Source: Bdellovibrionota bacterium (GTDB taxonomy: Bacteria; Bdellovibrionota_C; UBA2361; SZUA-149; CAZDWZ01). Taken from it: a DNA stretch of 64,000 nt. Below the pieces are notes generated by a model. The model was not told the origin of the DNA. It did not search any database and was given only the letters and a program-made list of their open reading frames with translations. The stretch spans positions 197,499-261,498 of the forward strand of contig JAXLVP010000002.1 in NCBI GenBank assembly GCA_046328905.1, given 5' to 3'. The stretch's first letter is position 1, and every line of letters starts with the position of its first letter. Made by a program: the position numbers and the translations under genes. Of this stretch, positions 2,642 through 23,903 are shown piece by piece.

Positions 2642-2661
2642 ATGAGCCTCGTCGCGGACCA

Positions 2662-5483: not shown

Positions 5484-6394
5484 TTCCCCTCCTCATACAG
5501 CTTGCGCAGCGTCCTGTTGATCCAAAGGTCGTTGTCGAGATTCGTACCGCCGCGTTTCGCATGCTCAACAAAATATTCGTATTCGAGCTTCCACGTGGGG
5601 TCGGCACACTCGAGCGTATCGGATGCTTCAGTCGGACGTCCGGATGGCAGAACCCGCTTGCGAACAGTGATCGTGCTCGGCCCCCATTTACACAGGCAGT
5701 TGACATGAAGCGATCCGGCATCTCCGATCACATCCAGCCGAAATGTGTTTCTCCACGACAGCAACGTCGCCTCGAGCTGGATGCGCGGCATCTCAGCTTG
5801 CGAGCCGAAAACAACGTGGTCATACGAATTATTTTCCAGCCGGTAGTAACTGAACGGCTTGAGGTCCGTTCGGTGCTCACCAAGCAAGAAATCGGTTGTA
5901 TCAAGCAGGTGAGAACCGAGGTCCGCCAGCACACCCATTCCTTTGTCTCGCCAGACAGAGTTACGAACTTCACGCGCCGTCCCGTTTCCGTAGAACATCT
6001 CGAGGGAAAGAACCTTCCCAATCTCCCCCGCCGTTATAATTTCGCGGGCGCGGACGAGAAACGGCTCGAAGCGATGGTTGTATGCGGTGTAACAAAACAC
6101 CCGCCGCTTCGCGGCCAGATCGCGAAGGCGCTCGATATCCCGGTCGTCCTCGCTCACGAGCGGTTTTTCGACTAGGACGTGCTTCCCGTTATCGAGGAGG
6201 TAGGAAAGAATCTCGATCTTTGCTTCGTCCGGAGTGCACACCAATGCCGCGTCATACGATTCGAGTGGAACGTCTTGCACTCGCGTAAACTGGGCGTCCG
6301 GCTTTACAGGATCAACCGTCGCAACAAGATCGCTGCCGGCGAACTTGCTGCGTTTCGCACCTTGAATCCCGAGCCCGGCGACGATGACTCTCAT
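5480..6394 (-). CDS. Gfo/Idh/MocA family NAD(P)-dependent oxidoreductase
   Basis: N-terminal Rossmann fold with the VLVEKPL (EKP) signature; translationally coupled on both sides. Confidence 0.75.
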   Translation of the reverse strand: MRVIVAGLGIQGAKRSKFAGSDLVATVDPVKPDAQFTRVQDVPLESYDAALVCTPDEAKIEILSYLLDNGKHVLVEKPLVSEDDRDIERLRDLAAKRRVFCYTAYNHRFEPFLVRAREIITAGEIGKVLSLEMFYGNGTAREVRNSVWRDKGMGVLADLGSHLLDTTDFLLGEHRTDLKPFSYYRLENNSYDHVVFGSQAEMPRIQLEATLLSWRNTFRLDVIGDAGSLHVNCLCKWGPSTITVRKRVLPSGRPTEASDTLECADPTWKLEYEYFVEHAKRGGTNLDNDLWINRTLRKLYEEGK

Positions 6395-7977
6395 CGGAGC
6401 AGGACTTTGCTGATCAGGTTCTTCGACATCTCGGTCATCTGCTCAACCGACTGGAGCTTCGCGATAACGTCATCCGGTGTTACGGGGTGATTTCCGTCTC
6501 TTTCACACGCGACCGCGGCTGCGGCCGAGCCGATGATTGTCGCGATAACCGCCGACTTGCTAGTGTAAAGAGAAAGAGAAGAATAGGAGAGCATCGCATC
6601 GCCCGCGCCGACAGCATCGACGACGTGGTCAACGAAGCTATCGACAATAAAAAACGCTGAGACCTCTTCCGGACTTCGATACGTGAGCACGCCTCGTTCG
6701 CCCATCGTCATCATCAGACATTTGCACTTCGCGCGCGTGAACAGCTCGCGGGCGAGCGGGCGTACGACTGAGTCCTGATCTCCGAGAGCGAAACGAACCT
6801 CGCGCTCGTTCGGCGTGATCAGATCACATCCTTGAAACTCGACGATGTTCCCCCATCGGCTGGCAACTTGGCTATCCGCAACCTTGAAGGTCCCCTCCGG
6901 CACCGCTTCGAGGAATGCCGGGATGGTGTTCCGATTGAAAATTCCGTGACGAAAATCTGAGAACACGACGATGTCGGCCGGAGTATTGACAATCGAGTCG
7001 AGCAGCTGAGCGCGAATACGTTCGGAGATGATCCGATTGTCGACCTTTCCAACTCGAAGGAGATGGTAGCCGCTTGCAAGAAAAGAGTTCTTCTGGGTGG
7101 TCGGGCGTGTTTTGTCGATGACAGCGTGATTGTGAATGCCCGATTCTTTCAGTTCCGACGCGACAAAGTCTTTCAGCGCATCATCGCCCATGACCGTCGA
7201 AAAGGTGACATCCGCGCCCGCTTTTTTGATGTGACGCGACACGACCGCTGCACCGCCTGCAAAGTCCACTTGACGGTCGAACTGCACCGTCATTGTCGGC
7301 GTTTTCACGGCGCCACCCTGCATGCGGCAATACGTGTAGGAATCTACAATCGTGTCGCCGATCACATGCACTTTCACGTCTTTGAATTTGTCGAGTGTTG
7401 AATAGAGGTCTTGGAACGTAATATTCTCGGACTCCATCAGGAGCACGAGCTTCGCCGCTCCCAAGCGAGGGGAGAATGCTTCCGAGTCCGAGCTCGTCGT
7501 ATACTCGGCATCCCCTGGGGTGAAGAGAACTTCGCCGCCGTAAGCCTCTACCGCTGTGACGTCTTCGCGCGCCTTCGCAGGACTGCCGCTCTCGAAATAA
7601 TCAAATCCTTTCGCGAAATAGTCCGGCTGAAGAATGCGGATATTGTCGAGCGGCTGCTCATTTCGATCGATGATGACGTAGTCTACAAACTCTAGCGCAG
7701 CGAGGTTTACCGCGCGAACATCTTCCGGAACCGAAGGTCGCAAGCTCGATCGTTCGATGTACTTGTCTGAGACGAGCGTCGCCACGAGAATATTGGCGCG
7801 CTCCTTCGCGTACATCAGATGGCGAAGATGGCCGGGATGCACGATATCGAACGAGCCGTGACACATCACGACGGACTTCGTCCGCGGATGCGGACCGACG
7901 AGGTCTCGCACCTCCTCCACCGTACGTATCTTGCGGCGGAAATCCTCCGCTTTGTGCTGCTTCTTCGCCTTCATCAT
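6391..7977 (-). CDS. bifunctional cytidylyltransferase-like nucleotidyltransferase / PfkB-family sugar kinase (HldE-like, reversed domain order)
   Basis: N-terminal CHGSFDIVHPGHL (HxGH nucleotidyltransferase motif); C-terminal PfkB kinase (VHVIGDTIVD ... DAVGAGDAM). Confidence 0.7.
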   Translation of the reverse strand: MMKAKKQHKAEDFRRKIRTVEEVRDLVGPHPRTKSVVMCHGSFDIVHPGHLRHLMYAKERANILVATLVSDKYIERSSLRPSVPEDVRAVNLAALEFVDYVIIDRNEQPLDNIRILQPDYFAKGFDYFESGSPAKAREDVTAVEAYGGEVLFTPGDAEYTTSSDSEAFSPRLGAAKLVLLMESENITFQDLYSTLDKFKDVKVHVIGDTIVDSYTYCRMQGGAVKTPTMTVQFDRQVDFAGGAAVVSRHIKKAGADVTFSTVMGDDALKDFVASELKESGIHNHAVIDKTRPTTQKNSFLASGYHLLRVGKVDNRIISERIRAQLLDSIVNTPADIVVFSDFRHGIFNRNTIPAFLEAVPEGTFKVADSQVASRWGNIVEFQGCDLITPNEREVRFALGDQDSVVRPLARELFTRAKCKCLMMTMGERGVLTYRSPEEVSAFFIVDSFVDHVVDAVGAGDAMLSYSSLSLYTSKSAVIATIIGSAAAAVACERDGNHPVTPDDVIAKLQSVEQMTEMSKNLISKVLLR

Positions 7978-8020
7978 CTCCTTGACCGAGGTCTGTGCGC
8001 ACTCCGACGCACTCCTCCGA

Positions 8021-9022
8021 TTAGGTCAATCCGATCTTCTTGATCATCTTCACGTTGAAGTAATGCGGGTCATCGAAGCTGTTCGGGAGCTTCCCGGCTT
8101 TGAACGCTTTACACAGTCCGCGAACGGCATCTTCGATACTGTATTTGGGCTCGAAGCCAAGCACTCGGGCTATTTTCGCCGACGAAACGTGGTATGACCG
8201 AAGGTCGTCGGACTCGGTGGTCACGATTTCAATCGGAGCGAGCTCCGGCATCTCTTCTTCCACGACGTTCTTCACGATAACGGCAAGATCGGCGAGCGTT
8301 CGGTTCTGGAATCCGGCATTGAATGTCTCACCCTGAATCTGTGCCGCCGGTGTCTCGAGCAAGCTCACGTAGAGATCGGTAATATCTTCGATATGAATAT
8401 TCGGCCGCTTCTGAGGTCCGCCGAACACGGTGATCTTGCGTTTATTCACGGCGTGATTCGTAAGAATATTCACCGAAAGGTCGAGACGAGTCCGGGGAGA
8501 GTAACCGCAAATAGTCGCAGGACGGATTACGACACAAACAAAGTCATCAGACTTGTGCTTCAGAAGAAGCGGCTCAGTCAGTCCTTTGTACTTATTGTAA
8601 TCAGTGATCGGCACCAAGGGATGCTCTTCGGTGACTTCCGGCGCATCGCTCACGCCGTAAACGGAGCTCGTCGAGGCGTAGATGAAGCGTTCTACACCCG
8701 CTTCCTTCGTAGCAACGACCATCGGCTCGAAGCAGTCGTAGTTGATAGCCTTGCTCAATCCGTCGTTCAGCTCGAAGCTGGGATCGTTCGAGATACAGGC
8801 GAGGTGGATGATCGAGTCGCAACCGGCAATCGATTTCGCGAAATACGGAGTATCGCGGATGTCGCCTTTGATAACTTTCAGATTTTGATGTTTCGGAATG
8901 CCCTGTTCGCCGTAGAGCATGAGGTCGTAAATCCGAACCTTATGTCCCAATGCGAGGAGCTTCGGAACAAGAACAGAGCCCACATAGCCCGCGCCGCCAG
9001 TTACAAATATTTCACGTTGCAT
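8021..9022 (-). CDS. NAD-dependent epimerase/dehydratase (extended SDR, UDP-sugar 4-epimerase-like)
   Basis: GGAGYVGS Rossmann motif and YNKYK (YxxxK) catalytic motif. Confidence 0.8.
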   Translation of the reverse strand: MQREIFVTGGAGYVGSVLVPKLLALGHKVRIYDLMLYGEQGIPKHQNLKVIKGDIRDTPYFAKSIAGCDSIIHLACISNDPSFELNDGLSKAINYDCFEPMVVATKEAGVERFIYASTSSVYGVSDAPEVTEEHPLVPITDYNKYKGLTEPLLLKHKSDDFVCVVIRPATICGYSPRTRLDLSVNILTNHAVNKRKITVFGGPQKRPNIHIEDITDLYVSLLETPAAQIQGETFNAGFQNRTLADLAVIVKNVVEEEMPELAPIEIVTTESDDLRSYHVSSAKIARVLGFEPKYSIEDAVRGLCKAFKAGKLPNSFDDPHYFNVKMIKKIGLT

Positions 9023-9192: not shown

Positions 9193-10569
9193 ATGTCATT
9201 TTCAGCCTCCTTCCTCCGTGAAGCGATGCAAATCGCCGACCAACTCGACGAGAGCGCTATCGAACGAGCTGTGCAGGTTCTCCGCCGGACACGAGACAAT
9301 CAGGGAAGGCTGTTTCTGATCGGATCTGGAGGCGGAGCCGGTCATGCATCGCATGCTACCTGCGATTTCCGGAAGCTCTGCAGCATGGAGGCCTACTGCC
9401 CCACCGATAACGTCTCAGAGCTGACCGCCCGAATCAACGACGAAGGATGGGATTCCTCCCTGGCAAACTGGCTCAAAACTTCTCGGTTAAATGGAAAAGA
9501 TTGCCTTTTTGTCTTTTCCGTTGGTGGCGGAAGCGAAGACAAGAACATCTCCGTGAATCTCGTCAACGCTATGAAGGCGGCGAAAGAGGTCGGCGCATCA
9601 ATCGTCGGCGTTGTCGGCCGAGATGGTGGATTTACAGCCAAAGTAGCGGATGCTGCGATAGTGGTGCCAACGGTCGATGCTTCCCGGGTCACTCCTCACA
9701 CAGAAGCCTTCCAAGCGCTCGTTTGGCATTTGATTGTCTCTCATCCGGCTCTCCAAACCGGCACGGCAAAATGGGAAGGAACACAGTCATTTGCCTCAAA
9801 GTCCGGACAAAAGGCGACTTCGATTCACCAGCTGCACGTGAAGGTGTTCGCCGACGGCGCGGAGCTCGCGGGAATGCTTGAAATGTATCGCAACCCCCTC
9901 ATCGCCGGCTTCACGACGAACCCGACGTTGATGAAGAAGGCCGGCATTGTGGACTACGCTGCCTTCGGCAAAGATGTTCTAACGCTCATAAAAGACAAGC
10001 CGATCTCATTCGAGGTGTTCTCCGACGACTTTGCGGAGATGGAAGCACAGGCGCTTACCATCGCTTCTTGGGGCGAGAACGTATATGTGAAGATCCCTAT
10101 CACCAACACCCGTGGTGAATCAGCAGTGCCGCTCGTGAAGCGACTCACCGCTGCTGGAGTCAAAGTAAACGTCACAGCGATTATGACCTTGGAGCAGATC
10201 GAAGAGGTCCTGCCGGCCTTAAAAAATACCGCGGGCGCATACGTCTCCGTGTTCGCGGGTCGAATAGCCGACACCGGCCGCGACCCACTACCGATGATGA
10301 AAGCCACGATGAAAATGCTCGCGGAGCATCCAGCCGTCGAGCTCATCTGGGCGAGCCCCCGTGAGCTGCTAAACATTTTCCAGGCGAACGAGATTGGCTG
10401 CCACGTCATCACGGTAACGAATGACGTCCTGAAGAAGCTCACGCTCGTCGGTAAGGATCTTTCCGAGTATTCGCTCGAGACTGTCCAGATGTTTCGGAAT
10501 GATGCTGTTTCGGCGGGATTTTCGCTTGAAGTGGATTCTGATGGAAAGGAGAGTCAGATAGCGGCGTGA
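9193..10569 (+). CDS. fusion protein: SIS-domain sugar-phosphate isomerase (GmhA-like) + transaldolase/fructose-6-phosphate aldolase-like domain
   Basis: N-terminal SIS motifs (LFLIGSGGGAGHASH; FVFSVGGGSEDKN ... VVGRDGG); C-terminal TalC/FSA-like motifs (GFTTNPTL, Schiff-base-type YVKIP, SVFAGRIAD). Confidence 0.75.
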   Translation: MSFSASFLREAMQIADQLDESAIERAVQVLRRTRDNQGRLFLIGSGGGAGHASHATCDFRKLCSMEAYCPTDNVSELTARINDEGWDSSLANWLKTSRLNGKDCLFVFSVGGGSEDKNISVNLVNAMKAAKEVGASIVGVVGRDGGFTAKVADAAIVVPTVDASRVTPHTEAFQALVWHLIVSHPALQTGTAKWEGTQSFASKSGQKATSIHQLHVKVFADGAELAGMLEMYRNPLIAGFTTNPTLMKKAGIVDYAAFGKDVLTLIKDKPISFEVFSDDFAEMEAQALTIASWGENVYVKIPITNTRGESAVPLVKRLTAAGVKVNVTAIMTLEQIEEVLPALKNTAGAYVSVFAGRIADTGRDPLPMMKATMKMLAEHPAVELIWASPRELLNIFQANEIGCHVITVTNDVLKKLTLVGKDLSEYSLETVQMFRNDAVSAGFSLEVDSDGKESQIAA

Positions 10570-10609: not shown

Positions 10610-11143
10610 CTAATGCACGCACCGGTCGTTGAACCCGGTATTCTCCTGACTGCTAGAATTCGCGAGCTCTCCGTTCGTTGCGACAGTGCAGCCTCCGTTA
10701 CCAACGAGCGGTGTCTCCATGGGGTTACCATTCGTGTGACCGTCAAAATGAGGATACGCGAAGTTGCTGCCCCACTCCCCGTCGTCTGTCATTTGAATGA
10801 GTCCTGCTCGGCTAAGCTGACACGCAATCTTAAACTCGGCTGGCTCGGGAAGCCGTTTGCCTGCTTCGGCACAACTCTGGTGACAATCTTCCCACGCTAT
10901 TCCTGCGCCTGAAAATTGGTCTTTATCCGCATAAATCCCGGTGGGACCAGCAGTTCCTTCCGATCCTATGGGAACGAAGACCTCACTTGCGCTGCGGATT
11001 TTCGCATGAGGATGAAATAAAACGTTCTTCGTCATTTCCTGATTCACGATCTCGGACCCGAGCGATTGCGCGATGGCGCTCGATGAGAACAAAACCGAAC
11101 CTGCGATGAGACATACGAGTGACGTGAGTGATTTTCTGGGCAC
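10610..11143 (-). CDS. small secreted Cys-containing protein, paralog A (possible DUF1566/Lcl-like lectin-fold domain)
   Basis: N-terminal signal peptide (LVCLIAGSVLFSSSAIAQ); W-E-D-C...KRLPEP.EF motif; clear paralog of the 30332-30880 gene; GTG start. Confidence 0.55.
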   Translation of the reverse strand: MPRKSLTSLVCLIAGSVLFSSSAIAQSLGSEIVNQEMTKNVLFHPHAKIRSASEVFVPIGSEGTAGPTGIYADKDQFSGAGIAWEDCHQSCAEAGKRLPEPAEFKIACQLSRAGLIQMTDDGEWGSNFAYPHFDGHTNGNPMETPLVGNGGCTVATNGELANSSSQENTGFNDRCVH

Positions 11144-11239: not shown

Positions 11240-12487
11240 TTACTCAGGCGAATACCCAAGCCGCTCCATCAATTCTGGCGTCGCAATTGACCGTATCCGA
11301 GCCTTTTGAGATTCGCTGAAGGCGGAGCGCCACTCATCGTTCACGCCCTTGCGGAACGCATAATCGCCTGGCTTGCACTCGTATGGTTCGCCCCGAAATT
11401 CGCTCCGTGGAATTCCGTGGAAATCGACTATCGAACGAAAAAAATCTTCCGGCCGGCTTTTGAAATCTTCAAACTTGGTCCATTGGATCTCGAAGCTCCG
11501 AGACGGATCGGCTTCCGCATCCAACCATCCCTGGATCCATTCGATCTCCACACCGAGGTAGAACTCTATCGCCGCGTCGAGCTTTTCTGCCAACGTCTTC
11601 CGAAAATAGCCTTCTGGAAAATTACACTCGAGCATTGCCATCTCGTATCGCTGCATTTCTGGCGTACGTTGAGCCATCGTTCGCAACGCTTCTTCAACGT
11701 AGAGTATGGACGAATAGAACGCCTGGCGTGGATCGCGGAGGTGGACGTTCACCTTCCTTATACCGCTTAGGTTCAGGGCGAGGATGCTCCGTTTGCACGG
11801 GAACATGTGCGCGTGCAGTATTCCGCCATAGTGGAGAAAGCGTTCGAGCAGCTTCGGGATGATTGGTGCTCTATTTCCACCGTATTGGTCCGTGATCGGG
11901 TCGCGGTGGTCAAGCATACCGAGGCGCCTCGAAAGCTCGGCACAGATGAAGGTTCCGGCTGAATGCCCGATAGCTGCAAAAAGGATGGACTGATGGTTTC
12001 GGAAAGGCTCTCGTTGGGCTTCGAGGTCTAACTGTCTGATCGTATCGCGAAGAACATTGAAAACCTCCATGTTTCCGGGGTGAAATTGGAGGAGGGCGCG
12101 GAGCACCTTGACCGCATCCTCGTGCTGCTTGGACTCCACGAGCAGTCGAGCGAGCGGAAGACCATACTCTACAGCGTCCGGCCGGAAGCGCAGCGCACTC
12201 GTGTAGCTCTGGATAGCTTCTGCTCGGTACTGAAGTAGAGAGCAGAGCTCTGCATGGTGATGAAAGAAAACCGGATGCTTGTGCGGCTGAGAAATCGCCT
12301 TTCTGAGGACTTCGAGAGACTCGAGCGCCTTCCCGGAGCGAAGGAGAGCCACGCCCAACAGATCCAGAACGGACGCATTGTTCGGATCAGCGGCAAGCTC
12401 TGTCTCGAGAACCGAGCATGCCTCATCAATGCGACCCGCTTCCAGGTTCGCTAGCGCGTTCGGCGGATAATGGATCTCAGTCAGCAA
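11240..12487 (-). CDS. TPR-repeat protein with C-terminal sulfotransferase-fold domain
   Basis: N-terminal TPR-like repeats; C-terminal sulfotransferase-like motifs (LRDPRQAFYSS resembling the 3'-phosphate-binding region; FRKGVNDEWRSAFSE resembling the C-terminal RKG..GDWKN.F motif). Confidence 0.55.
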   Translation of the reverse strand: MLTEIHYPPNALANLEAGRIDEACSVLETELAADPNNASVLDLLGVALLRSGKALESLEVLRKAISQPHKHPVFFHHHAELCSLLQYRAEAIQSYTSALRFRPDAVEYGLPLARLLVESKQHEDAVKVLRALLQFHPGNMEVFNVLRDTIRQLDLEAQREPFRNHQSILFAAIGHSAGTFICAELSRRLGMLDHRDPITDQYGGNRAPIIPKLLERFLHYGGILHAHMFPCKRSILALNLSGIRKVNVHLRDPRQAFYSSILYVEEALRTMAQRTPEMQRYEMAMLECNFPEGYFRKTLAEKLDAAIEFYLGVEIEWIQGWLDAEADPSRSFEIQWTKFEDFKSRPEDFFRSIVDFHGIPRSEFRGEPYECKPGDYAFRKGVNDEWRSAFSESQKARIRSIATPELMERLGYSPE

Positions 12488-12624
12488 TTCCGTTCCCCTG
12501 TATTCGCACCTATTTTTGATGACATGTTGGTCGGCAAAGGCTCTTCGAATCGTCGATTGGCCGGTGATATTTCTTTACTGAATCCCCCAATTGATAGTAA
12601 TAATCCGACAAATCTGGAGACCTT

Positions 12625-13377
12625 ATGAAGACGGAATGGGATTACACCGACCTCGCGGACGCCTACCTCAAGCGCGCGCCCTATTCGGACCAAGCGCTCG
12701 ACGAGATGGTGCGGCTCGCAAGTTTAGATGCAGACTCTGTAATCTGCGATGTTGGAGCCGGCACCGCGCATCTCACACTGCCGATCGCGAAGCGGGGCTA
12801 TCGAGTCACTTCCGTGGAACCGAACGATGCAATGCGCGCAAACGGTATGCGTCTGACCTCCAATCTGCCCAACGTGAGCTGGATTGAGGGCACGGGCGAA
12901 GATACCAAGCAGCCCGTCTCTTCATTTGACATGGTCACTTTCGGCTCATCGTTCAACGTGACAGACCGACCGCGGGCACTCGTTGAAACTGCGCGAATTT
13001 TGAAAAACCGAGGATGGTTTGCATGCATGTGGAACCACCGCTCACTCGAAGATCCGATTCAACAAGGAATTGAATCTGTCATTCGAAAGCACATTCCGGA
13101 ATACGACTACGGTAGCCGCCGAGAGGACCAGACGGAAGTAATCAACGCCTCAGGTCTGTTTGGGAAAGTTCACAAGCTCGAAGGCCCGGTCAGCCATCGC
13201 CAATCAATTGATGATTGCGTCGAAGCTTGGCGCTCCCATGCCACTCTGCATAGGCAAGCTGGAAACAGCTTTCAAACGATCGTTGACGAGATCGAGAACT
13301 TTCTCCGAGCGAAGAACGTCGATTCAATCGACGTTCCTTACCAAACTCGAATCTGGTGTGCGCAGAAGAAGAGCTAG
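12625..13377 (+). CDS. class I SAM-dependent methyltransferase
   Basis: Motif I ICDVGAGTAHL with acidic residue at the end of beta2 (VEPND). Confidence 0.7.
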   Translation: MKTEWDYTDLADAYLKRAPYSDQALDEMVRLASLDADSVICDVGAGTAHLTLPIAKRGYRVTSVEPNDAMRANGMRLTSNLPNVSWIEGTGEDTKQPVSSFDMVTFGSSFNVTDRPRALVETARILKNRGWFACMWNHRSLEDPIQQGIESVIRKHIPEYDYGSRREDQTEVINASGLFGKVHKLEGPVSHRQSIDDCVEAWRSHATLHRQAGNSFQTIVDEIENFLRAKNVDSIDVPYQTRIWCAQKKS

Positions 13378-13378
13378 C

Positions 13379-15790
13379 TTAACTGCGCTCGGGTCCATTC
13401 GACGCGAGTACGCGAACTTTCCGATTTGCACAGTCGATCTGAAGATGACGAGCGCGAGACCACTCTGCGTAGTTCTGTTCCCCACAACCAATGACAGCCG
13501 GGATCCCAAGCTCAGCGCAGCGAATCGCCATGTGCGAGTTCACGCCTCCGTACATCGTCACAAGTGCACCGATTTTGCGAGAGAAGATCCAGTCGTGGCC
13601 CGGATCGGCGCTCCGAATGAAAACAATCTTCTGTGAAAGATCGATCTCGAATAAGTCTTCCTCGATGACGACGGTTTCGGCTATCGCACGTCGGGTGATG
13701 AAGTTCGGCTCAACCTCGCTGAGAAAAAAGTGTAGCGCGTCTGCATCGCGCTGGATCAGTTGCGGCAAACGGATTGCGCAGGCCACATCGTATCGCTGCT
13801 TATTCCGCTGGATGTCCGTCCGGAGAATCTCCGGAAGAGATTCATGGGTCAGGTTCGTATAGAGATGCCGCACTGTTTCGATATCGACGAACGCAAGGTC
13901 CTCACGAGCCATGCCGTGTTTCTCGCCGAGCTCCACCAGATACGAAAGTATCTGGCTGACATTCCGGCTAAACAAGAACTTCCCATATTCCCGTCCTTCG
14001 ACAGCTTCCCGGATGAACTGAAAAAACTCGTCGACGCTCGCGAGGAGTCCGTTTTCCTTCAGCGCGTCTGCAACACGCCCGTATTGTTCGGAAGTTAGGT
14101 GGAACTCACATTCTGCCGACTCGGTTACGCCGCACGACAGCCCTTGGAAGTATAATTCTGGAGCCTCATCGTAACGAAGCGACAGTATGTCGTACGTTCC
14201 AGGACGCAGATGACCATATCGTTGAAGGAACTCTTCCTTGCTGAGCGTTCCCACTTGCACTCGCTCCGTATCGTTCGCCAATCGCTTCGCAACCGTATTC
14301 AGCGATCCGAGAAAGCTCTGATAGTCCTCGTCGGAAAAAATTTTTAGGTCCACAAGAGATCGGAGCATCTGCACGGCGATAAAACCCGCGCGCGCGAGGC
14401 CAGCGAAAGGCAAAGTGCCGTATCGTTTTCCATCTTCGATGAGCCAATAGATTTTATCGATCGGGGACAACTCGCTCGCCACGATGCCGTCAAATCGGCT
14501 CGTCAGCTCATCGAGCTTTTTCAAATCTTCCTGATACAGACCCTTTGTTGTCGAAACCACTGTGTTTGTTAGATCCAGGAGAGCGTATTTCAGCCGGTCT
14601 AGCTCCAACTCAGTGAAGCCGTGACGCAGCAGCTTCTTGATGCGCGTGGCAAGATTCAAATCGTAGCATGAGTGGACGATTTCGAACTCTACCTTGTCAT
14701 GGTCGCTCGGGCGCTCTGTAAGCTGATCCATGTAGTAATTGACAAGCTTGTGAGCGAGCGCATTGTCGACTTTTTGCGGGACAAATGAGCTGAAGCTCGC
14801 TCGAATGTCGATATATGGAAGGCCCAAAAAATCGACCAAAAGCGGGCAACTGCGCACGTTCTTGTAGCCGTAATTGTTCCTTTGATATGCCCAGATATCG
14901 TCGGTGATAAGCTGTTGGTAGAGTGATCGCGCGAGCGCCTTCGGACGGAGGCCAATCATCTCAGCCGGATTCCAATCCGTCATGACGCTGTACATTCCGC
15001 GGTCACCGAAGAGATACGGGTGGGGCCGACTCAGCTTTTCCAGTTTTGAGCGGATGCGCACCAGATATTGAGCAAAGTCGTTTTCCGAGATTGACGAAGC
15101 TGTCGGGCGGGCGGCGATAGGCCGCACTTGAAATAAGATAAGCTCGTCAGAAGCGGTGAATGCAAACTCGATGTCGAGCCGATCGCATTCAAAAAGTGCT
15201 TCGAGCTCCTCGAGGCACCCGACAATGCGATCTAATCGCTTTTGCGGTGCCGGTTCTTTGGTTCCCCGAAACCGAATGTAAGTCTTTGTTTGATGGGTCC
15301 CTGCGGTTACGCTCGACGTTGAAGTTGTGGTGTCGTCGTAGTTGATGACATAGTACGGAGCGAGAGAATCGCCGTCTCGCGAGAATGCAACACCACTCAG
15401 GACTGCGTCGGAAAGATGCGGTTGCACAAAAAATTCGTCGGAAGATTCTTCTCGCCCGTATGATCGGATGACGCTATCAATAGCATCGACGACGGACTTT
15501 GTGTCCCCAGTAACCACGTTTCCGATCGAGCAGAACTCTCCCGCGTGAGACGCGCTCGCAGAGTCTTCAGCGGCGCAGGAGCTTCGCACAATGATCTGCG
15601 GTGAGGAAGAAAACTCGTCCTGAATAGTTCGAATGACATTCTCAGATTCCGTTCGCCACGTTTCGACTGTAAAACATCTTAGGGGAAGTACCGTCGATCG
15701 GCTCAGACGACCTTTCAATGCGAGTAACGTTTGGGCCTTCGTGCTGAAGTGGATTCGAGCCATTTTGAACCTTGCGGGTGAAACTGCCAC
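13379..15790 (-). CDS. PEP-utilising-enzyme family dikinase-like phosphotransferase (rifampin-phosphotransferase / glucan-water-dikinase-type architecture)
   Basis: N-terminal PPDK-type nucleotide-binding motif (RSSCAAEDSASASHAGEF); C-terminal swivel His domain (GGVNSHMAIRCAELGIPAVIGCG); no C-terminal TIM barrel, so not a canonical PEP synthase. Confidence 0.7.
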   Translation of the reverse strand: MAVSPARFKMARIHFSTKAQTLLALKGRLSRSTVLPLRCFTVETWRTESENVIRTIQDEFSSSPQIIVRSSCAAEDSASASHAGEFCSIGNVVTGDTKSVVDAIDSVIRSYGREESSDEFFVQPHLSDAVLSGVAFSRDGDSLAPYYVINYDDTTTSTSSVTAGTHQTKTYIRFRGTKEPAPQKRLDRIVGCLEELEALFECDRLDIEFAFTASDELILFQVRPIAARPTASSISENDFAQYLVRIRSKLEKLSRPHPYLFGDRGMYSVMTDWNPAEMIGLRPKALARSLYQQLITDDIWAYQRNNYGYKNVRSCPLLVDFLGLPYIDIRASFSSFVPQKVDNALAHKLVNYYMDQLTERPSDHDKVEFEIVHSCYDLNLATRIKKLLRHGFTELELDRLKYALLDLTNTVVSTTKGLYQEDLKKLDELTSRFDGIVASELSPIDKIYWLIEDGKRYGTLPFAGLARAGFIAVQMLRSLVDLKIFSDEDYQSFLGSLNTVAKRLANDTERVQVGTLSKEEFLQRYGHLRPGTYDILSLRYDEAPELYFQGLSCGVTESAECEFHLTSEQYGRVADALKENGLLASVDEFFQFIREAVEGREYGKFLFSRNVSQILSYLVELGEKHGMAREDLAFVDIETVRHLYTNLTHESLPEILRTDIQRNKQRYDVACAIRLPQLIQRDADALHFFLSEVEPNFITRRAIAETVVIEEDLFEIDLSQKIVFIRSADPGHDWIFSRKIGALVTMYGGVNSHMAIRCAELGIPAVIGCGEQNYAEWSRARHLQIDCANRKVRVLASNGPERS

Positions 15791-15882
15791 CAGACCTCAT
15801 AACCTCCCAATTTGATGTTTTTTCCTACTCCAAGATTCGAAAACTTGCGGGCCTTTTACCGGGCCTGTAGCTTCTAAACTGA

Positions 15883-16392
15883 ATGGACGATCAGTCGAAT
15901 AGCGCGCGAATTTTTTGGATTACTGGTTACCCCGGTGCCGGAAAAACCACACTCGCGAAAGAGGTAATGCTCGCCTTGGAGTCGCGGGGCACACCAGCGA
16001 TACTCGTCGACGGCGACGCTGTCAGGGCTATCTTCGGAAATGACTTAAGCTACGACGACGCAGGCAGAATTCAGAACGCTTGGCGCATCGCACGACTTTG
16101 CAAATTTGTCGCCGGCCAGAATATCGTGGTCGTTGCTGCTACTGTGTCTCTCTACGCGGAGGTGCGCGATTGGCTTCGCGGCGAATGTAGTGGATATCGG
16201 GAGGTCTTTGTTTCCGTAACGAAAGAAACGCTCCAGCAGAGAGACCAAAAAGGGCTCTATTCTTCCGGCGCCCCGGTTCCAGGCCTCACTCAGAGATCAG
16301 AAGAACCGCTGAATCCGCACTTGAGGATACAGAATGACGAACATCGAGAATCTTTCGCATCGCTCGCCGAGACGATTCTCGCTCTCCGGTGA
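15883..16392 (+). CDS. adenylylsulfate (APS) kinase family protein (CysC-like nucleotide 3'-kinase)
   Basis: P-loop GYPGAGKTT and LVDGDAVR motif typical of APS kinase; 169 aa. Confidence 0.75.
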   Translation: MDDQSNSARIFWITGYPGAGKTTLAKEVMLALESRGTPAILVDGDAVRAIFGNDLSYDDAGRIQNAWRIARLCKFVAGQNIVVVAATVSLYAEVRDWLRGECSGYREVFVSVTKETLQQRDQKGLYSSGAPVPGLTQRSEEPLNPHLRIQNDEHRESFASLAETILALR

Positions 16393-16399
16393 CTTGCCG

Positions 16400-17665
16400 T
16401 CAGAGTCGAGCTTGCGAGTGGTGCACGTGCTCGTCCTTCTTGGGCACTCCGATTCCCATCCCCCGCAAGATTCTTTGAATTCGCAGTGCTAAAACTTCCT
16501 GCCCTCGAGCGTTGTAGTGGTTCCAGTCGTGATAGACGGTCTCGTCGACGTCATCCAGCCACTCGCTCGCATCTTCTACATGCACCATACACCCGTCATG
16601 AAGGTCTTTTCGCAGCTCGAGGAACCGCGACCGAACCATGGCGAACCATTCTGGGACTAGCGTCGGCACAGGTGGCATGCGCGCAGCAATTTTTGCGAAG
16701 AGTGCGGACTCCTCGTCCGTTCGTTTTCGGCTACCCCACGCAAGTTGCGGCTGTAAGAGGTAGATTATCTTCGCGCCGTTGGCTCTGCTGAGCCCGATGG
16801 CACTGCGGACGTTTCGGATGTACCAGTCGACGGATTCGGGCTTGACCGACCAAGTCGAATAATCCATCTCTCCCCAAATCTTATTCGGCATCTCTACCTT
16901 CGTGGATGCCGTGTGTTGAAGTTCGTCAAAGAAAGTTTTTATTTTTGCTGCAAGCTTCGAGCTGAGGATTCTACGGCGGAGCTGATGGCTGAGCGAAGAA
17001 TAGCCCGATGCCTGAAGCACCATCTGCACAACGTCGTCCAGTGAGCGATGGGTATTTGGAATCCACCCACCCCGGAGCCCCTTATTACCCCATGTCGAGC
17101 TCAAGCAGTCATTGATTCCGTCCAGCACGACGATTACGTCGGGTTGATACCCAATCAACTCGAGCGACAAATAGCTCAGCTGTTGCCATGACATGTACGA
17201 TCCGACACCACAATTGAGCACTCTGATTTTCGGTGAGTCGGCTCGAAGGAATCTTTCTAATTGCGCGCTCAGCGTTTCAGAATTGCTGTTTACACCCATT
17301 CCCATCGCCGTAGATCCGCCCATGACGAAAACGCGTGTAAGCGACTTGTCGTCCGCATGGTAGTCGCGCGGCGTCGTGCCATTGTGAACGAAGCCATCTT
17401 GGTCGGTACCGAACCAGACGTTGTTCCATTCCCAGTGCGCGATTTCTCCCCCAGCGTAATTGCGGCCAAGTCGATGTCCGAGGCGCGGGTCCTTAATATA
17501 TCGACCAGGAACCGTTCGCCAATCGACAGTCAGTTTCCGCTCCTCTGCCATGCGCACCTGTTCTCTAGAAGAGCGGATAGATGTACTCTGCGGTTGGATC
17601 CTTCTGTTCCACCGCAGGTTGCCGAGCGAAGACGCCATAAACTGCGATGACCGGTAGCAAAACAA
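16400..17665 (-). CDS. SGNH/GDSL-family hydrolase (esterase or acyl-group-modifying enzyme); 5' end uncertain, possible frameshift
   Basis: GDS-type block VFVMGGSTAMG and C-terminal DxxH (YHDWNHY); an overlapping ORF in another frame (17565-17816) encodes a signal-anchor-like segment. Confidence 0.6.
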   Translation of the reverse strand: MFCYRSSQFMASSLGNLRWNRRIQPQSTSIRSSREQVRMAEERKLTVDWRTVPGRYIKDPRLGHRLGRNYAGGEIAHWEWNNVWFGTDQDGFVHNGTTPRDYHADDKSLTRVFVMGGSTAMGMGVNSNSETLSAQLERFLRADSPKIRVLNCGVGSYMSWQQLSYLSLELIGYQPDVIVVLDGINDCLSSTWGNKGLRGGWIPNTHRSLDDVVQMVLQASGYSSLSHQLRRRILSSKLAAKIKTFFDELQHTASTKVEMPNKIWGEMDYSTWSVKPESVDWYIRNVRSAIGLSRANGAKIIYLLQPQLAWGSRKRTDEESALFAKIAARMPPVPTLVPEWFAMVRSRFLELRKDLHDGCMVHVEDASEWLDDVDETVYHDWNHYNARGQEVLALRIQRILRGMGIGVPKKDEHVHHSQARL

Positions 17666-17941
17666 GAAACAATGGAAATGCGGCTGCTCGAGAAAGGAAA
17701 GACTTACGCTTTTGCACGATGAGAGTGTATGCGGCGCCGAGCAGGGCCGAGCAACGCGTACTCGTGCGCTGACCTGCAGGGCCTGACTTCGCGTGCGAGA
17801 TCTGTGGTTCCATCACTTACCTTCGGTTGCAATGATATGATTATGATGCAGGTTTGAAGGCTTCGGATCCCCGAAAAGATTCTCGAAATGATCAGACTCT
17901 TCAGCGAGTTACTCCCCCACGTCATGCAGCGAATGGAAACG

Positions 17942-19474
17942 TTACGCCGGAAGCAGCTCGCTATGCGCCCTCAGGAAATCTCGCGCTACGCGGCAGTTCA
18001 TCACACCAGACACTGATCGCAGGAGCGCTTCACGCCTGAAACGGGCCTGCAAGATCTCATCCCGCTCAGAATACAAGGATTTCCCATCCATCCGATCCAT
18101 CATCTCGATCGCCGCACCTTGAATTTCTTCAGGAGTATTCTCCAAGACACGCACCTTTTCCCGGGCATAGACGTGCATATTGACGCAGGAAGTGAATGGC
18201 GGTGACAGAGCTTCAGCAAAGGTTTGCAATCGACCGTCACGTTCAGAGTATTGAAGCTTCGGCAAGAAGAGATCCTCGCCGCCATACGGATAGAAGTCAG
18301 TGCCCACAATATTTGTCCAAATATTCGGTCTGCCCCAGGGCGAGGCGGCTCCGTTCGGACCCGACGCACTCGAAATAAAAAAACGACATTCGGCGGAACA
18401 ATAGATGTCGAGCCAATCCGTGGACGGTATCCGATGGGGAAGGTCGATGACAAACGGCATCGAAGGAAGCGGTGTCATATGCGGCGCTCCTATTCGTACA
18501 ACTGCTCCGCCTCTTTGGACGATCGATTCTATAGCTGGAATGTAGTTCTGAGCCGACGAGTTCATATAGGTCCAGAATGCTTCCTCCGTCGGATTTCCGG
18601 AACCGGCCAATTGCTCGCGGACATGGAGGGTAACAAACCACCGGTCTTTTGGAAGTCCGAGCGACTCGAGCAAGGCCCGACCCTGCTCCCGATGTTGTTC
18701 GTCGATCGAGAGGAGCGGGCGGCCCACCTCTCGATCCCACCGATCTTGCAGCTTCACCATCGCATGATGAAGGTGGAGCGGCTTGCCTTCTTTCACACGC
18801 AGCCAACACGAGTCGTACTCGAGATCTCGAGCGAGAGGTTGAAGCAATTGGCACAGCCCGGGATCAGTTACGACGCAGAGGTAACGCTTCCAGTACTCGA
18901 GTAGCGCCGGATTTGCTACCTTTCCGTTTGGTGCAAGAAGCACAGGCTGAAACCATTCTGGAAGCAGCCCGAGAACTTTCATTTTCAAAAAGAATTCCGG
19001 CTCGCTGACGAGATGGCCAAAATGCGTGAGCGTACCCGTGCGAGTTTGAAAAAAACGAAGTCCGCTCTTTCCAAGCGGGTGGGCGTTGATAAGGATGGCG
19101 CGTCTTTCGTGCGCTGACTCAATCCATCGATAACAGCTGTCTTGGTCCCCGGCGAAATGGTACAGAAATGCGGCGGAATAGCATGCTTCGATCGCGTCAG
19201 CAGAGATGTTGTCGGAGGCCAATTCGAGACCGTAAGCAAAATATCTTGCGACTTGGAAGAGAGCCTCGACCTGCATTTGACCCGTTGCCACGGGCATGAG
19301 CGTGCGCGCCAGCGAGACATACGCGTCCCCTAGCGCGCGACGATGGTCGTCATCCCACAGATCCTTCGGCGCGTCCTCGAGCCGGAAGATACCCTCCACG
19401 AAAGGTAGCGCCGGCGCAGTGCTCAGCGGGTCAATAGGTAGATTTTCATTCAGCGCGGCAGCAAGATTCGTCAC
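17942..19474 (-). CDS. conserved hypothetical protein, possible GT-B-fold glycosyltransferase (heptosyltransferase-like C-terminal motif)
   Basis: ISSASGPNGAASPWGRP resembles the GT9-type DSGP..H.A.A.G.P motif; start placed at GTG 19474 immediately after the upstream stop because the longer track ORF (to 19744) would overlap the upstream gene by about 270 nt. Confidence 0.4.
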   Translation of the reverse strand: MTNLAAALNENLPIDPLSTAPALPFVEGIFRLEDAPKDLWDDDHRRALGDAYVSLARTLMPVATGQMQVEALFQVARYFAYGLELASDNISADAIEACYSAAFLYHFAGDQDSCYRWIESAHERRAILINAHPLGKSGLRFFQTRTGTLTHFGHLVSEPEFFLKMKVLGLLPEWFQPVLLAPNGKVANPALLEYWKRYLCVVTDPGLCQLLQPLARDLEYDSCWLRVKEGKPLHLHHAMVKLQDRWDREVGRPLLSIDEQHREQGRALLESLGLPKDRWFVTLHVREQLAGSGNPTEEAFWTYMNSSAQNYIPAIESIVQRGGAVVRIGAPHMTPLPSMPFVIDLPHRIPSTDWLDIYCSAECRFFISSASGPNGAASPWGRPNIWTNIVGTDFYPYGGEDLFLPKLQYSERDGRLQTFAEALSPPFTSCVNMHVYAREKVRVLENTPEEIQGAAIEMMDRMDGKSLYSERDEILQARFRREALLRSVSGVMNCRVARDFLRAHSELLPA

Positions 19475-19476
19475 GT

Positions 19477-20265
19477 TCAATGTCCTTCCGTCTCGCGACC
19501 AGTCACTGTTCGAAACCGGCCGGAGGCGATATCCTGCTCGGCCCGTGCGATTCGATCGGGAGTGTCGATTCCAAGCTGATAAAATTTCGCCCCATCTACT
19601 GGAAACGCAAATATTTTTTTTGAAGAAGCGAGCACCTTCGGGAAAACATCCCGTGGAAGGTCGACGACAGGCGACCCTTCGTCCTTGGGGGAAACGAAGC
19701 TCAGTATCTCGGGAGAAAAAGCGTATACGCTTGAACTCACCCATTGCGAGACTATTTCGGAGTCAGTTTGAGGTCGTTCGACGAACCGGAGTATCTTTTT
19801 CGTCGACTCATCGAACAGAATCACTCCTGATTTTTTCAGCTGGTCGCGAGGGCGGAAGTAGCAGCACAAAGTAGCGATGCCTTCGCTCACCCTGTGCGCT
19901 TCAGCGACAGCTCGCAGATCGAAGTTCACCAGCATATCGGCGGACAACACAAAAAAAGGCTCGGAGAGAGCCATCGCCGCAGCAACCTTGCGCATCCCTC
20001 CTGCCGTACCGGTCAGCTCGTGCTCATCAACATACTCAAGCTTTAGACCAAAGCGAGATCCACCCCCAAAGTACGTTTTGATCTTCTCGGCGTGGTAGCT
20101 TACGTTCACGCCGATATGGTCGACGCCATGCGAGGCAAGAAGCTCGATACCATATTGCATCAGCGGCTTCCCGCTTATCGGAATGAGGGGCTTCGGCTGA
20201 TGATCGGTCAATGACCCCATCCGTTCACCCCGGCCGGCTGCAAGCAATATTGCTTTTCGGATCAT
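19477..20265 (-). CDS. sugar-phosphate nucleotidyltransferase (RmlA/HddC/mannose-1-P guanylyltransferase-like)
   Basis: N-terminal LLAAGRGERMGSLTDHQPKPL signature of NTP-transferase family; about 260 aa. Confidence 0.75.
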   Translation of the reverse strand: MIRKAILLAAGRGERMGSLTDHQPKPLIPISGKPLMQYGIELLASHGVDHIGVNVSYHAEKIKTYFGGGSRFGLKLEYVDEHELTGTAGGMRKVAAAMALSEPFFVLSADMLVNFDLRAVAEAHRVSEGIATLCCYFRPRDQLKKSGVILFDESTKKILRFVERPQTDSEIVSQWVSSSVYAFSPEILSFVSPKDEGSPVVDLPRDVFPKVLASSKKIFAFPVDGAKFYQLGIDTPDRIARAEQDIASGRFRTVTGRETEGH

Positions 20266-21987: not shown

Positions 21988-22758
21988 CTAAACCTTGCAC
22001 GTAATGAATGACATACCGAAGCCGCCGATGGGCAGAAACTGAGCAAACGTGAATTCGCTCCGCTCTTGCAGCTCTTTGAAAGCCTTTCCCACCCCGGCAA
22101 ACGGCGAGCCTTTGTATCCGACGTGATAGTCGTCGATATAAATCAATGTTCCCGGCTGCAAAAACGGCTCAATGAATTTGAACACCGGAACAGCGCTTTC
22201 GTAGAGGTCGCAATCAACACAAATCATGCTGGCTCGAACACCCCGTTCGAAGAGCTCGGACTGCAACTGCGAGGTAAGGCTCTTTTGATAAAAACCTTTG
22301 TACGTGTGAATTTTGTCGGTGTAAACACCCAGGCTCGTCACCAGACGACGGAATTCTTCTTCGCTGGTAGCGAGCGCGCCGGGCGTGTAGTCCGACACTG
22401 ACACTTCGTCTTCGTTTTCGATGACCGGCAAACCCTCGAAGCTATCGAAGGCGTGGAACTTCATGAAATGCATGTTCTGCCGCCGCGCTTCGCTCACCGC
22501 CATCCGAAAGGTTCTCGCGCGGTGACACCCGAACTCCATGTAGTCCCCAACAATTTCGTTCGCGTAGAGCGAATCAAACGCCTGGATGTAAAAATTGCGT
22601 TTCGTTGTTTGGCGACGCAGCTGGTTGTAAGCAATCTGCTCTTTCTCACCCCAGTTCTCGAGCTCGGCTGCAGTTCCGAGCTCAACCCACGGTTCGCCCT
22701 GGATTCCTCTTGCGGCAAACTCTTCGACCGGAACGCGTTTGTCGGATCTCATCGTCAT
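21988..22758 (-). CDS. TylF/MycF-type SAM-dependent O-methyltransferase
   Basis: IVGDYMEFGCHRARTF and ICVDCDLYES motifs typical of macrocin-O-methyltransferase-like sugar O-methyltransferases. Confidence 0.65.
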   Translation of the reverse strand: MTMRSDKRVPVEEFAARGIQGEPWVELGTAAELENWGEKEQIAYNQLRRQTTKRNFYIQAFDSLYANEIVGDYMEFGCHRARTFRMAVSEARRQNMHFMKFHAFDSFEGLPVIENEDEVSVSDYTPGALATSEEEFRRLVTSLGVYTDKIHTYKGFYQKSLTSQLQSELFERGVRASMICVDCDLYESAVPVFKFIEPFLQPGTLIYIDDYHVGYKGSPFAGVGKAFKELQERSEFTFAQFLPIGGFGMSFITCKV

Positions 22759-22760
22759 AG

Positions 22761-23903
22761 TTAATCGTTCCTGATAAAACTCACGTATTGCTGGCCCCTT
22801 CCGAAGAAGGTTTTAAAATTGTCGAAGTCGTCGGCTCCGATTCGTTCTTCGAGAAAATCGGCGGCTTCAGTAAAGGCCAATTTGGTCTGCGGCATAAACT
22901 CGTTGATGTGGGAAAGCTCCCGAATCTTCGCTGCTGCTTCGCAGTTCAGCTGGGACGGTTCCGAACTGTCCTCAATCTGTTGCATAAGCTCAAAACAGTC
23001 CTGAGCAAGACGCAAAATTCGCGTTCCGGTTTCAGGAGAGTGTGCCGGCAACTCAAACCGGTAGTCTGTCAGGTTTGCGATGTTGCTCAAGTACTGCACT
23101 TTGAGACTCGCATTGGACGTGCGTTCATCTCCGTGGAGGTCCTTATACCACCTCCAATCTTGCATAAATCGCGGGGAGCTGCCGTAGAATGTCCATCCGT
23201 CACAAACCGAATCAATCGCGTCCGTGATAGAGAAGAAACCTGCAAAATACTTGATGATGATATTGTCCTGAACCCAGTCACGGGCAGGTCGATTCATTCC
23301 CTTGAGCGTTTTCAAATGCGAGGCAAAGAACGGTTCGAGTACCTTCACCCGGTCCTCCATCGGATCCGAGAACGGGCTGAGCTTCATGGCAATCAAGCGG
23401 CGGAGCGATTCTCCAAGAAACGACGCCGAGTCTATCGATGTGCCGACGACAATGCCGCCGGGTTTCGTGAATTGCGCCACATGTCGGAAAAATGCTTTTG
23501 AATCGAGTTGAAAGGGAACCACGCCTTCACACAACACGAGATCGAAGCGGTCGGCGGTGTCGAATCGCTCGATGAGAGAGCTCACGATCTCGATGCTTTC
23601 AAACGGAACGTTATATTCGTGAAAGTTCTTCGTGAGGGTCTGAATCGCCGTCGGATTTCCGTCCACGAGAACGTAACGTGCGAGATTGAGTGAAGCCGTG
23701 AAAAGCGCGTTGTAACCCGAGCCAGGGCCGAATTCGATCACCTCGCATCCACGAAGCAACCGTGATGGAATGCCGAGATGGCGATACAAGCTCTCGCGCC
23801 GTTCAAAGTGTTTCCTCAGCGCAGAGATATCTTGTCCGACGGGAGAGATCTTGTGCGTCGTGTAGAAGTCGAGATACGGCCGTTTTTCGTTATCGTTTTG
23901 CAT
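22761..23903 (-). CDS. class I SAM-dependent methyltransferase
   Basis: Motif I VIEFGPGSGYN; 380 aa with long C-terminal extension of unknown function. Confidence 0.6.
   Translation of the reverse strand: MQNDNEKRPYLDFYTTHKISPVGQDISALRKHFERRESLYRHLGIPSRLLRGCEVIEFGPGSGYNALFTASLNLARYVLVDGNPTAIQTLTKNFHEYNVPFESIEIVSSLIERFDTADRFDLVLCEGVVPFQLDSKAFFRHVAQFTKPGGIVVGTSIDSASFLGESLRRLIAMKLSPFSDPMEDRVKVLEPFFASHLKTLKGMNRPARDWVQDNIIIKYFAGFFSITDAIDSVCDGWTFYGSSPRFMQDWRWYKDLHGDERTSNASLKVQYLSNIANLTDYRFELPAHSPETGTRILRLAQDCFELMQQIEDSSEPSQLNCEAAAKIRELSHINEFMPQTKLAFTEAADFLEERIGADDFDNFKTFFGRGQQYVSFIRND

Follow-up and report, generated by a model that had tools for sequence, protein, structure and literature searches.

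The window analyzed here is a 64-kb stretch of a Bdellovibrionota metagenome-assembled genome (MAG; 55% GC), whose features were identified by Pfam, NCBIfam and open reading frame (ORF) scans. It contains a rearranged, partial and atypical copy of a phosphoramidate-donor module, in which a dikinase, a kinase and a methyltransferase are found with a tetratricopeptide-repeat (TPR) protein whose C-terminal domain has a predicted sulfotransferase fold. Sequence comparisons with related loci indicate that the module is found in more than 15 phyla and in several hundred species or more, with sulfotransferase-fold genes as the commonest companions of its core. We give about an even chance to the proposal that the window copy is functional, that its amidotransferase and cytidylyltransferase are encoded elsewhere, that the TPR-sulfotransferase-fold protein is the transferase and that the adjacent methyltransferase is the O-methylase. 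The wider value of the analysis lies in the comparative result, a widespread module recurrently partnered by sulfotransferase-fold genes; the window is an incomplete example, which limits what it can show alone. The four module-type genes are as follows.

11240-12487, minus strand: TPR and sulfotransferase-fold protein, 415 amino acids (aa); Pfam TPR, profile search and AlphaFold2 (AF2) model
12625-13377, plus strand: Methyltransf_11 methyltransferase, 250 aa; Pfam
13379-15790, minus strand: putative L-glutamine-kinase-family dikinase, 803 aa; PPDK_N and PEP-utilizers, NF004508
15883-16392, plus strand: short adenosine 5'-phosphosulfate (APS)-kinase-fold P-loop kinase, 169 aa; Pfam APS_kinase and NF004041

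The module in related loci

ORFs were called in 84 non-redundant loci from more than 15 phyla, and family hidden Markov models (HMMs) were built iteratively. In a second approach, every ORF up to 8 kb from the dikinase was clustered without labels. The families that accompany the dikinase were found at the following frequencies.

Module nucleotidyltransferase: 77-80 of 84 loci
C26 amidotransferase: 73-76 of 84 loci
Short APS-kinase-fold kinase: 66-75 of 84 loci
Methyltransf_11 methyltransferase: 56-61 of 84 loci

The usual order of the genes is kinase, methyltransferase, dikinase, amidotransferase and nucleotidyltransferase. Fusions of at least 900 aa account for 50 of the 150 best representative dikinases; 42 of them have an N-terminal nucleotidyltransferase domain, three a kinase domain and two an amidotransferase domain. 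Based on their sequences, the nucleotidyltransferase, amidotransferase, kinase and dikinase of the module are predicted to correspond to Cj1415-Cj1418 of Campylobacter jejuni, which together make cytidine diphosphate (CDP)-phosphoramidate 3'-phosphate from glutamine, ATP and CTP (PMC11800397). Methyl-phosphoramidate decoration has been described as restricted to Campylobacter (PMC6429109) and the glutamine kinase as specific to C. jejuni (PMC9561416). In contrast to this Campylobacter-only view, the donor-making genes appear to form a conserved module in several hundred species at least. As side observations, the nucleotidyltransferase-dikinase fusions are ~1000 aa long and make up about a quarter of the best representatives (P0338-P0416), and one representative combines amidotransferase, nucleotidyltransferase and dikinase.

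Sulfotransferase-fold genes of at least four lineages were found near the module in about 41 of the 84 loci. One family of ~400-870 aa, present in 29 loci, reaches Pfam Sulfotransfer_3 (47 bits for the Pseudoalteromonas member and 41 bits for the member in locus L072), and 13 loci have members of at least three further lineages. A sulfotransferase-fold gene lies within 60 bp of a core gene, on the same strand, in 27 loci, and the core gene is the kinase in 17 of these; translational coupling to the kinase is frequent. This recurrence beside the module supports the use by the sulfotransferase fold of 3'-phospho-CDP-amidate, a donor resembling 3'-phosphoadenosine 5'-phosphosulfate (PAPS), and lends comparative weight to the suggestion in the initial annotation of the window that a sulfotransferase-fold protein uses a PAPS analogue. 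As 3'-phospho-CDP-amidate is laid out like PAPS, a sulfotransferase scaffold would be a natural catalyst for transfer of the terminal phosphoramidate. No paper tying the sulfotransferase fold to a phosphoramidate-donor pathway was found among those consulted. In the C. jejuni pathway for O-methyl phosphoramidate (MeOPN), the transfer and methylation steps were without reconstitution as of 2025 (PMC12409886). We suggest tentatively, and at rather less than even confidence, that sulfotransferase-fold proteins are the phosphoramidate transferases of a widespread MeOPN-type pathway (more than 15 phyla, hundreds of species), of which the window would carry a TPR version with His in place of Lys in its phosphosulfate-binding loop, possibly acting in a route without a dedicated amidotransferase. 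If so, a well-known fold has come to transfer a P-N group from a PAPS analogue, and the group-to-sugar step would be testable with sulfotransferase-fold enzymes of cultivable strains.

The dikinase

The dikinase of the window is predicted to be an L-glutamine-kinase-family enzyme of the Cj1418 type that N-phosphorylates glutamine. Over residues 8-795 of 803 it scores 970.4 bits (cutoff 501) against NF004508 (PRK05849), an equivalog still labelled 'hypothetical protein', whereas its matches to models of phosphoenolpyruvate (PEP) synthase and rifampin phosphotransferase are weak and partial (26-46 bits). Like rifampin-phosphotransferase-type dikinases, it has an N-terminal PPDK_N-like ATP-binding region (PPDK_N at residues 51-113) and a phosphohistidine swivel domain (PEP-utilizers at residues 720-787), whose position makes the His domain C-terminal, as the initial annotation had described it. 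The dikinase is 100% identical to the 794-aa protein P0001, and its start is probably at 15763, as in P0001. The catalytic His stands in the motif GGVNSH and is His753 of the ORF (codon 13532-13534) and His744 of P0001. This swivel motif, GG(A/V)NSH, is invariant in the alignment, and the window dikinase keeps every family-invariant residue. The Campylobacter homologue has the same motif, with His738 of 780; the catalytic His of Cj1418 we take to be His-737. Over residues 10-795 the window dikinase shares 42% identity with that of Campylobacter sp. W0018 (locus L082), the reference here in place of C. jejuni Cj1418 itself; the gene order in that locus (methyltransferase, methyltransferase, dikinase, C26 amidotransferase, nucleotidyltransferase) is that of cj1420 to cj1416. 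With the NF004508 match and the GGxNSH motif, this identity bears out the suspected kinship with the glutamine kinase of the MeOPN pathway.

Relatives of the dikinase at 46-54% identity are abundant, and some, 47% identical, are called 'glutamine kinase' by the Joint Genome Institute (JGI). When 1.84 billion representative proteins were searched exhaustively, 1591 dikinase clusters were found at E<=1e-30; the best 150 of the 1591 all score at least 536 bits, and nearly all match end to end, with a few shorter or split. When GTDB species were scanned by pattern, with one genome for each and the MAG of the window not among them, at least 557 dikinase relatives were identified among the 600 matches listed. 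The best 80 of these relatives are 42-53% identical to the window dikinase and come from the candidate phyla radiation (CPR), Bacteroidota, Spirochaetota, Planctomycetota, Acidobacteriota, Nitrospinota, Verrucomicrobiota, Firmicutes, many Proteobacteria and Campylobacterales, including the cultured Pseudomonas, Pseudoalteromonas, Balneatrix, Anaerotruncus colihominis, Paenibacillus and Campylobacter sp. W0018.

The APS-kinase-fold kinase

The P-loop kinase, annotated initially as APS-kinase-like, does match Pfam APS_kinase, but at 101 bits, compared with 189-230 bits for true bifunctional enzymes in the same type of locus. It passes NF004041 (133.1 bits, cutoff 127) and does not reach the threshold of the APS-kinase equivalog TIGR00455 (98.6 bits, cutoff 138.7). 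It shares the APS-kinase fold and P-loop with enzymes of PAPS synthesis, and differs from CysC in carrying the residues that separate module-linked kinases from solved APS kinases, namely VFGxDLxY, RLC and RDQKGLYS, after the last of which the lid is shorter. Its identity to module-linked kinases, among them those of Arcobacter, Sulfuricurvum and Helicobacteraceae, is 36-50% (118-146 bits), while true CysN/CysC or Sat/CysC domains give 58-82 bits and the best solved APS kinases at most 70 bits. Some of its homologues are called 'cytidine diphosphoramidate kinase' by JGI. The kinase gene is divergently adjacent to that of the dikinase, 92 bp from the dikinase start, and the two proteins are fused in relatives (P0031, P0045, P0279 and P0292). 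These features place the kinase, by sequence, in a dikinase-linked, Cj1415-type clade with a predicted preference for CDP-amidate, in agreement with the earlier proposal of a CDP-phosphoramidate kinase. In three loci, true Sat-CysC or CysN-CysC bifunctional genes (L039, 3430-5121; L059, 2826-4652; L070, 4419-6251) coexist with the short kinase within 8 kb of the dikinase module, so that sulfation and phosphoramidation may coexist in some glycan loci.

The TPR-sulfotransferase-fold protein and the methyltransferase

TPR repeats occupy residues ~10-160 of the 415-aa protein and the sulfotransferase-fold domain residues ~165-415. The fold, already proposed in the initial annotation, is confirmed by profile comparison and a predicted structure. 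Although the isolated domain scores 17.5 bits against PF00685, under the gathering cutoff of 22, its nearest homologues carry PF00685. A profile made from the domain and five homologues matched 46 PDB chains at E<=1, all of them sulfotransferase-fold (sulfotransferases and the sulfotransferase-fold retinol dehydratase), with SULT2B1 the best at 4e-8; the alignment to SULT2B1 covers the 5'-phosphosulfate-binding (PSB) loop, the SHLP-type catalytic His, RxPxxxxxS and RKGxxxxW. The AF2 model has a predicted local distance difference test score (pLDDT) of 77 and a predicted template modeling score (pTM) of 0.80, and its top 46 Foldseek matches are sulfotransferases only, at probability 1.0.

Like cytosolic sulfotransferases (SULTs), the domain thus modeled has a PSB-like loop (G174-H175-S-A-G-T), a catalytic-type His227 and the 3'-phosphate-binding and RKGxxxxW motifs (R251-D-P-R-Q...S259; R379-K-G...W386). 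It differs from SULTs in its sub-threshold Pfam score and in the loop itself, AAIGHSAGTF, where His175 takes the place of the Lys or Arg of its relatives (LPKSGS or LPRSGT). The change from Lys to His was considered as a marker of a donor other than PAPS and rejected: many module-linked sulfotransferase-like proteins keep Arg (GRSGS), so the His is not diagnostic of the donor. No membrane segments were predicted in the sulfotransferase-fold protein(s) of the window. We regard the protein as a candidate group transferase. A second TPR-headed protein of the window (31018-32982, plus strand; 654 aa), with a C-terminal domain of ~380 aa, parallels it in design, and locus L088 of Microcoleus contains a whole row of TPR-enzyme proteins.

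The methyltransferase is 54% identical to that of the canonical locus L001, 57% to that of L005, and 40 and 32% to the two methyltransferases that precede the dikinase gene in Campylobacter, the 40% match being in the position of Cj1419. It belongs, by sequence, to the module-linked family and is presumed to be a phosphoramidate O-methylase. The initial annotation had counted several methyltransferases in this part of the window; only this one lies within 11240-20265, and two more are found at 21988-23903.

Comparison with the MeOPN pathway and a proposed mechanism

The window resembles the MeOPN pathway of C. jejuni (Cj1415-Cj1422) in its Cj1418-type dikinase, Cj1415-type kinase and Cj1419/Cj1420-type Methyltransf_11 protein, in the proposed donor 3'-phospho-CDP-amidate, and in its setting in a glycan locus with heptose and UDP-galactopyranose mutase genes. 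In C. jejuni, MeOPN sits on N-acetylgalactosamine in its furanose form (GalfNAc) and on heptose (PMC11800397). In the window, the UDP-galactopyranose mutase gene (glf) and heptose genes flank the phosphoramidate-type genes, a parallel in the acceptors that favors a functional module. The window differs from the C. jejuni pathway in its host, a member of Bdellovibrionota, and in having the TPR-sulfotransferase-fold protein in place of the DUF2972 transferase (Cj1421/Cj1422). No DUF2972 match was found among the scanned ORFs of the window; L082 of Campylobacter and L040 of Helicobacteraceae do have the domain.

In the mechanism that we propose, the dikinase, given its family membership, would first act as an L-glutamine-kinase-family enzyme. 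A cytidylyltransferase and a C26 amidotransferase, both presumably encoded outside the window, would lead to cytidine diphosphoramidate, whose 3'-OH the short kinase would phosphorylate to give the PAPS-like donor, as its clade, its adjacency to the dikinase and the fusions suggest. The TPR-tethered sulfotransferase-fold protein may then move the terminal phosphoramidate onto a sugar hydroxyl with release of 3',5'-CDP, a step to which the fold, the retained 3'-phosphate-binding motifs and the comparative linkage point. Finally, the adjacent methyltransferase would O-methylate the phosphoramidate.

Some features of L082 were noted separately. A Cj1421/Cj1422-like gene at 6853-8181 is interrupted by a stop codon at an A/T homopolymer; by eye, ITCHHTGSVAL and LLRDPIEILRS just before the DUF2972 region look like a PSB loop and RDPxxxxxS. 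Directly after the MeOPN-type genes, phosphonate genes (13806-17366) encode a cytidylyltransferase-PEP mutase fusion, a thiamine pyrophosphate (TPP) decarboxylase-like protein and an Fe-alcohol dehydrogenase. Within 10 kb, L082 gave no Cj1415-type kinase.

Missing partner genes and alternative explanations

Four further features follow the kinase gene in window coordinates.

16400-17665, minus strand: SGNH/GDSL hydrolase, 421 aa; Pfam Lipase_GDSL_2
17942-19744, minus strand: TIGR04372-family putative glycosyltransferase, up to 600 aa; NCBIfam TIGR04372, 166 bits
19477-20265, minus strand: sugar-1-phosphate nucleotidyltransferase, 262 aa; Pfam NTP_transferase, 118.6 bits
20262-20840: GmhB-like phosphatase; overlaps the nucleotidyltransferase gene by 4 bp

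The nucleotidyltransferase is of the sugar-phosphate type, as was first thought, but the further idea that it is the cytidylyltransferase of the pathway did not hold. It resembles module-type enzymes over ~60 N-terminal residues only, whereas the latter share ~50% identity among themselves from Campylobacter to Bdellovibrionales. Sugar-1-phosphate enzymes match it best, with a UTP-glucose-1-phosphate uridylyltransferase as the top PDB entry. Given this grouping, the short similarity and the translational coupling to the GmhB-like phosphatase, it was rejected as a Cj1416 orthologue.

Several points weigh against the proposal of a functional module with partner genes elsewhere. No C26 amidotransferase of the Cj1417 type was found by tblastn, family HMM (E<=10) or Pfam across the 64 kb or the ~4.8 kb upstream of it, which leaves the glutamine-amidotransferase-like hydrolase that the initial annotation had named as a gene to look for without a candidate in the window, and no module-type (Cj1416-type) nucleotidyltransferase was found in the same span. 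Both genes are adjacent to the dikinase in its closest relatives (L005, L006, L090 and L091, including two Bdellovibrionota MAGs), which makes the arrangement of the window exceptional. Unlike the genes of the MeOPN pathway, the four module-type genes lie on alternating strands and do not form a single operon. The sulfotransferase-fold domain is closest, at 35% identity, to proteins of Microcoleus and others whose PSB loop contains Lys or Arg and whose loci lack the module; among them, P0122 and P0123 of Microcoleus share the architecture of TPR and Sulfotransfer_1 with the window protein, but carry the canonical LPKSGS/LPRSGT loop and are not beside a dikinase/kinase module. A sulfotransferase fold for the Campylobacter Cj1421-like protein is unsupported (hhalign <=10%, HMM searches negative). 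Of the phosphoramidate-donor reading first made of this DNA, the parts that concern the dikinase, kinase and methyltransferase stood, and those that concern the nucleotidyltransferase and amidotransferase did not.

Classical sulfation is an unlikely, though still appreciable, alternative, in which the TPR-sulfotransferase would be PAPS-dependent and beside the dikinase and kinase by chance, with PAPS supplied from elsewhere or made by a kinase that acts on APS. All the PAP-binding motifs of cytosolic sulfotransferases (RDPxxxxxS, RKGxxxxW and the catalytic His) are conserved in the domain, its closest homologues are PF00685 proteins that look like ordinary sulfotransferases, the kinase still matches Pfam APS_kinase, and true CysNC or Sat-CysC genes are found beside the module in some related loci. 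The window scans, however, gave no ATP sulfurylase, as had been noted at the outset; the kinase is under the APS-kinase equivalog cutoff and in the dikinase-linked clade, His replaces the Lys or Arg of the PSB loop, and sulfation leaves the intact dikinase and the module methyltransferase without a role. The initial annotation had offered PAPS-dependent sulfation as well; it loses by the missing ATP sulfurylase and retains the argument from the nearest domain relatives.

The missing partners and the scattering of the genes over both strands, set against the intact clusters of the nearest relatives, would also suit an orphaned or repurposed remnant, in which the amidotransferase and cytidylyltransferase were lost on rearrangement, no phosphoramidate donor is made and the rest is decaying or serves another phosphorylation. 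We consider this less probable again, since the dikinase is full length with all family-invariant residues, the kinase keeps its P-loop and clade residues, the methyltransferase remains 54-57% identical to module copies and the ORF list shows no frameshifts or stop codons interrupting these genes. Moreover, L004, L046 and L062 likewise have no amidotransferase within 10 kb. L004 combines a kinase-dikinase fusion, two sulfotransferase-fold genes, a module-type nucleotidyltransferase and a TIGR04372 relative, and it also speaks for chemistry independent of the amidotransferase, to which we assign the lowest probability of the three. Here, a general nucleotidyltransferase, such as that at 19477-20265, would activate N-phospho-glutamine, and the 3'-phosphorylated adduct would either donate an N-phosphoglutamine-type group to the sugar or be trimmed by another hydrolase; the SGNH hydrolase, which adjoins the kinase and has an intact catalytic motif, could be such an enzyme. 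This chemistry is without precedent, the window nucleotidyltransferase is tied to sugar-1-phosphate enzymes and the GmhB-like phosphatase, and the SGNH family is present in just one of 85 loci.

Locus setting and further observations

The SGNH hydrolase, a TylF methyltransferase and a 380-aa methyltransferase were considered as module members and rejected, each being found in just one or two loci. The SGNH hydrolase and the TIGR04372 protein are context, outside the conserved module. The TIGR04372 HMM covers residues 162-599 of the latter; the 600-aa ORF shares ~270 bp with the nucleotidyltransferase gene, and its first ~150 residues are Arg-rich and outside the HMM. The true start is probably Met150, at position 19297. 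Relatives of this protein are also found near the dikinase in L042 and L061, in addition to L004. It has no Pfam domain and no PDB sequence match, and single-sequence AF2 reached a pLDDT of only 34.5.

The ORF, Pfam and NCBIfam scans place these genes in a glycan-biosynthesis locus of soluble enzymes at ~1-36.5 kb of the window, with a repertoire for heptose, galactofuranose and amino sugars. Its sugar-supply genes encode a split transketolase, an SIS-transaldolase fusion, an HldE-like kinase/nucleotidyltransferase and the GmhB-like phosphatase. It also encodes UDP-galactopyranose mutase, UDP-glucose dehydrogenase, epimerases, a DegT aminotransferase, a radical-SAM/SPASM enzyme, a GNAT protein, a formyltransferase, a UDP-N-acetylglucosamine (UDP-GlcNAc) 2-epimerase, a GT4 glycosyltransferase and several methyltransferases. 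The locus showed no transporter and no polymerase-like membrane protein. Matches in a scan for promoters and terminators were at or below chance. The sequence CCCAAT(T)TGAT occurs at 12587-12597 and 15806-15817, in both divergent intergenic regions (sulfotransferase/methyltransferase and dikinase/kinase); it was rejected as a shared element, as a pattern search gave no excess over chance.

The heptose-supply genes (9193-10569, plus strand; 6391-7977 and 909-2680, minus strand) are unusual. An SIS (GmhA-like) domain is fused to transaldolase, with the split transketolase nearby, and in one protein a cytidylyltransferase-like domain precedes a PfkB kinase, opposite to the arrangement in HldE. 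Sedoheptulose-7-phosphate may be produced by the locus itself. Two small paralogues of 177 and 182 aa (10610-11143 and 30332-30880, both minus strand), 53% identical over their full length, bracket the glycan-modification region; each has an N-terminal hydrophobic segment and just a weak, partial match to the formylglycine-generating enzyme (FGE)-sulfatase family.

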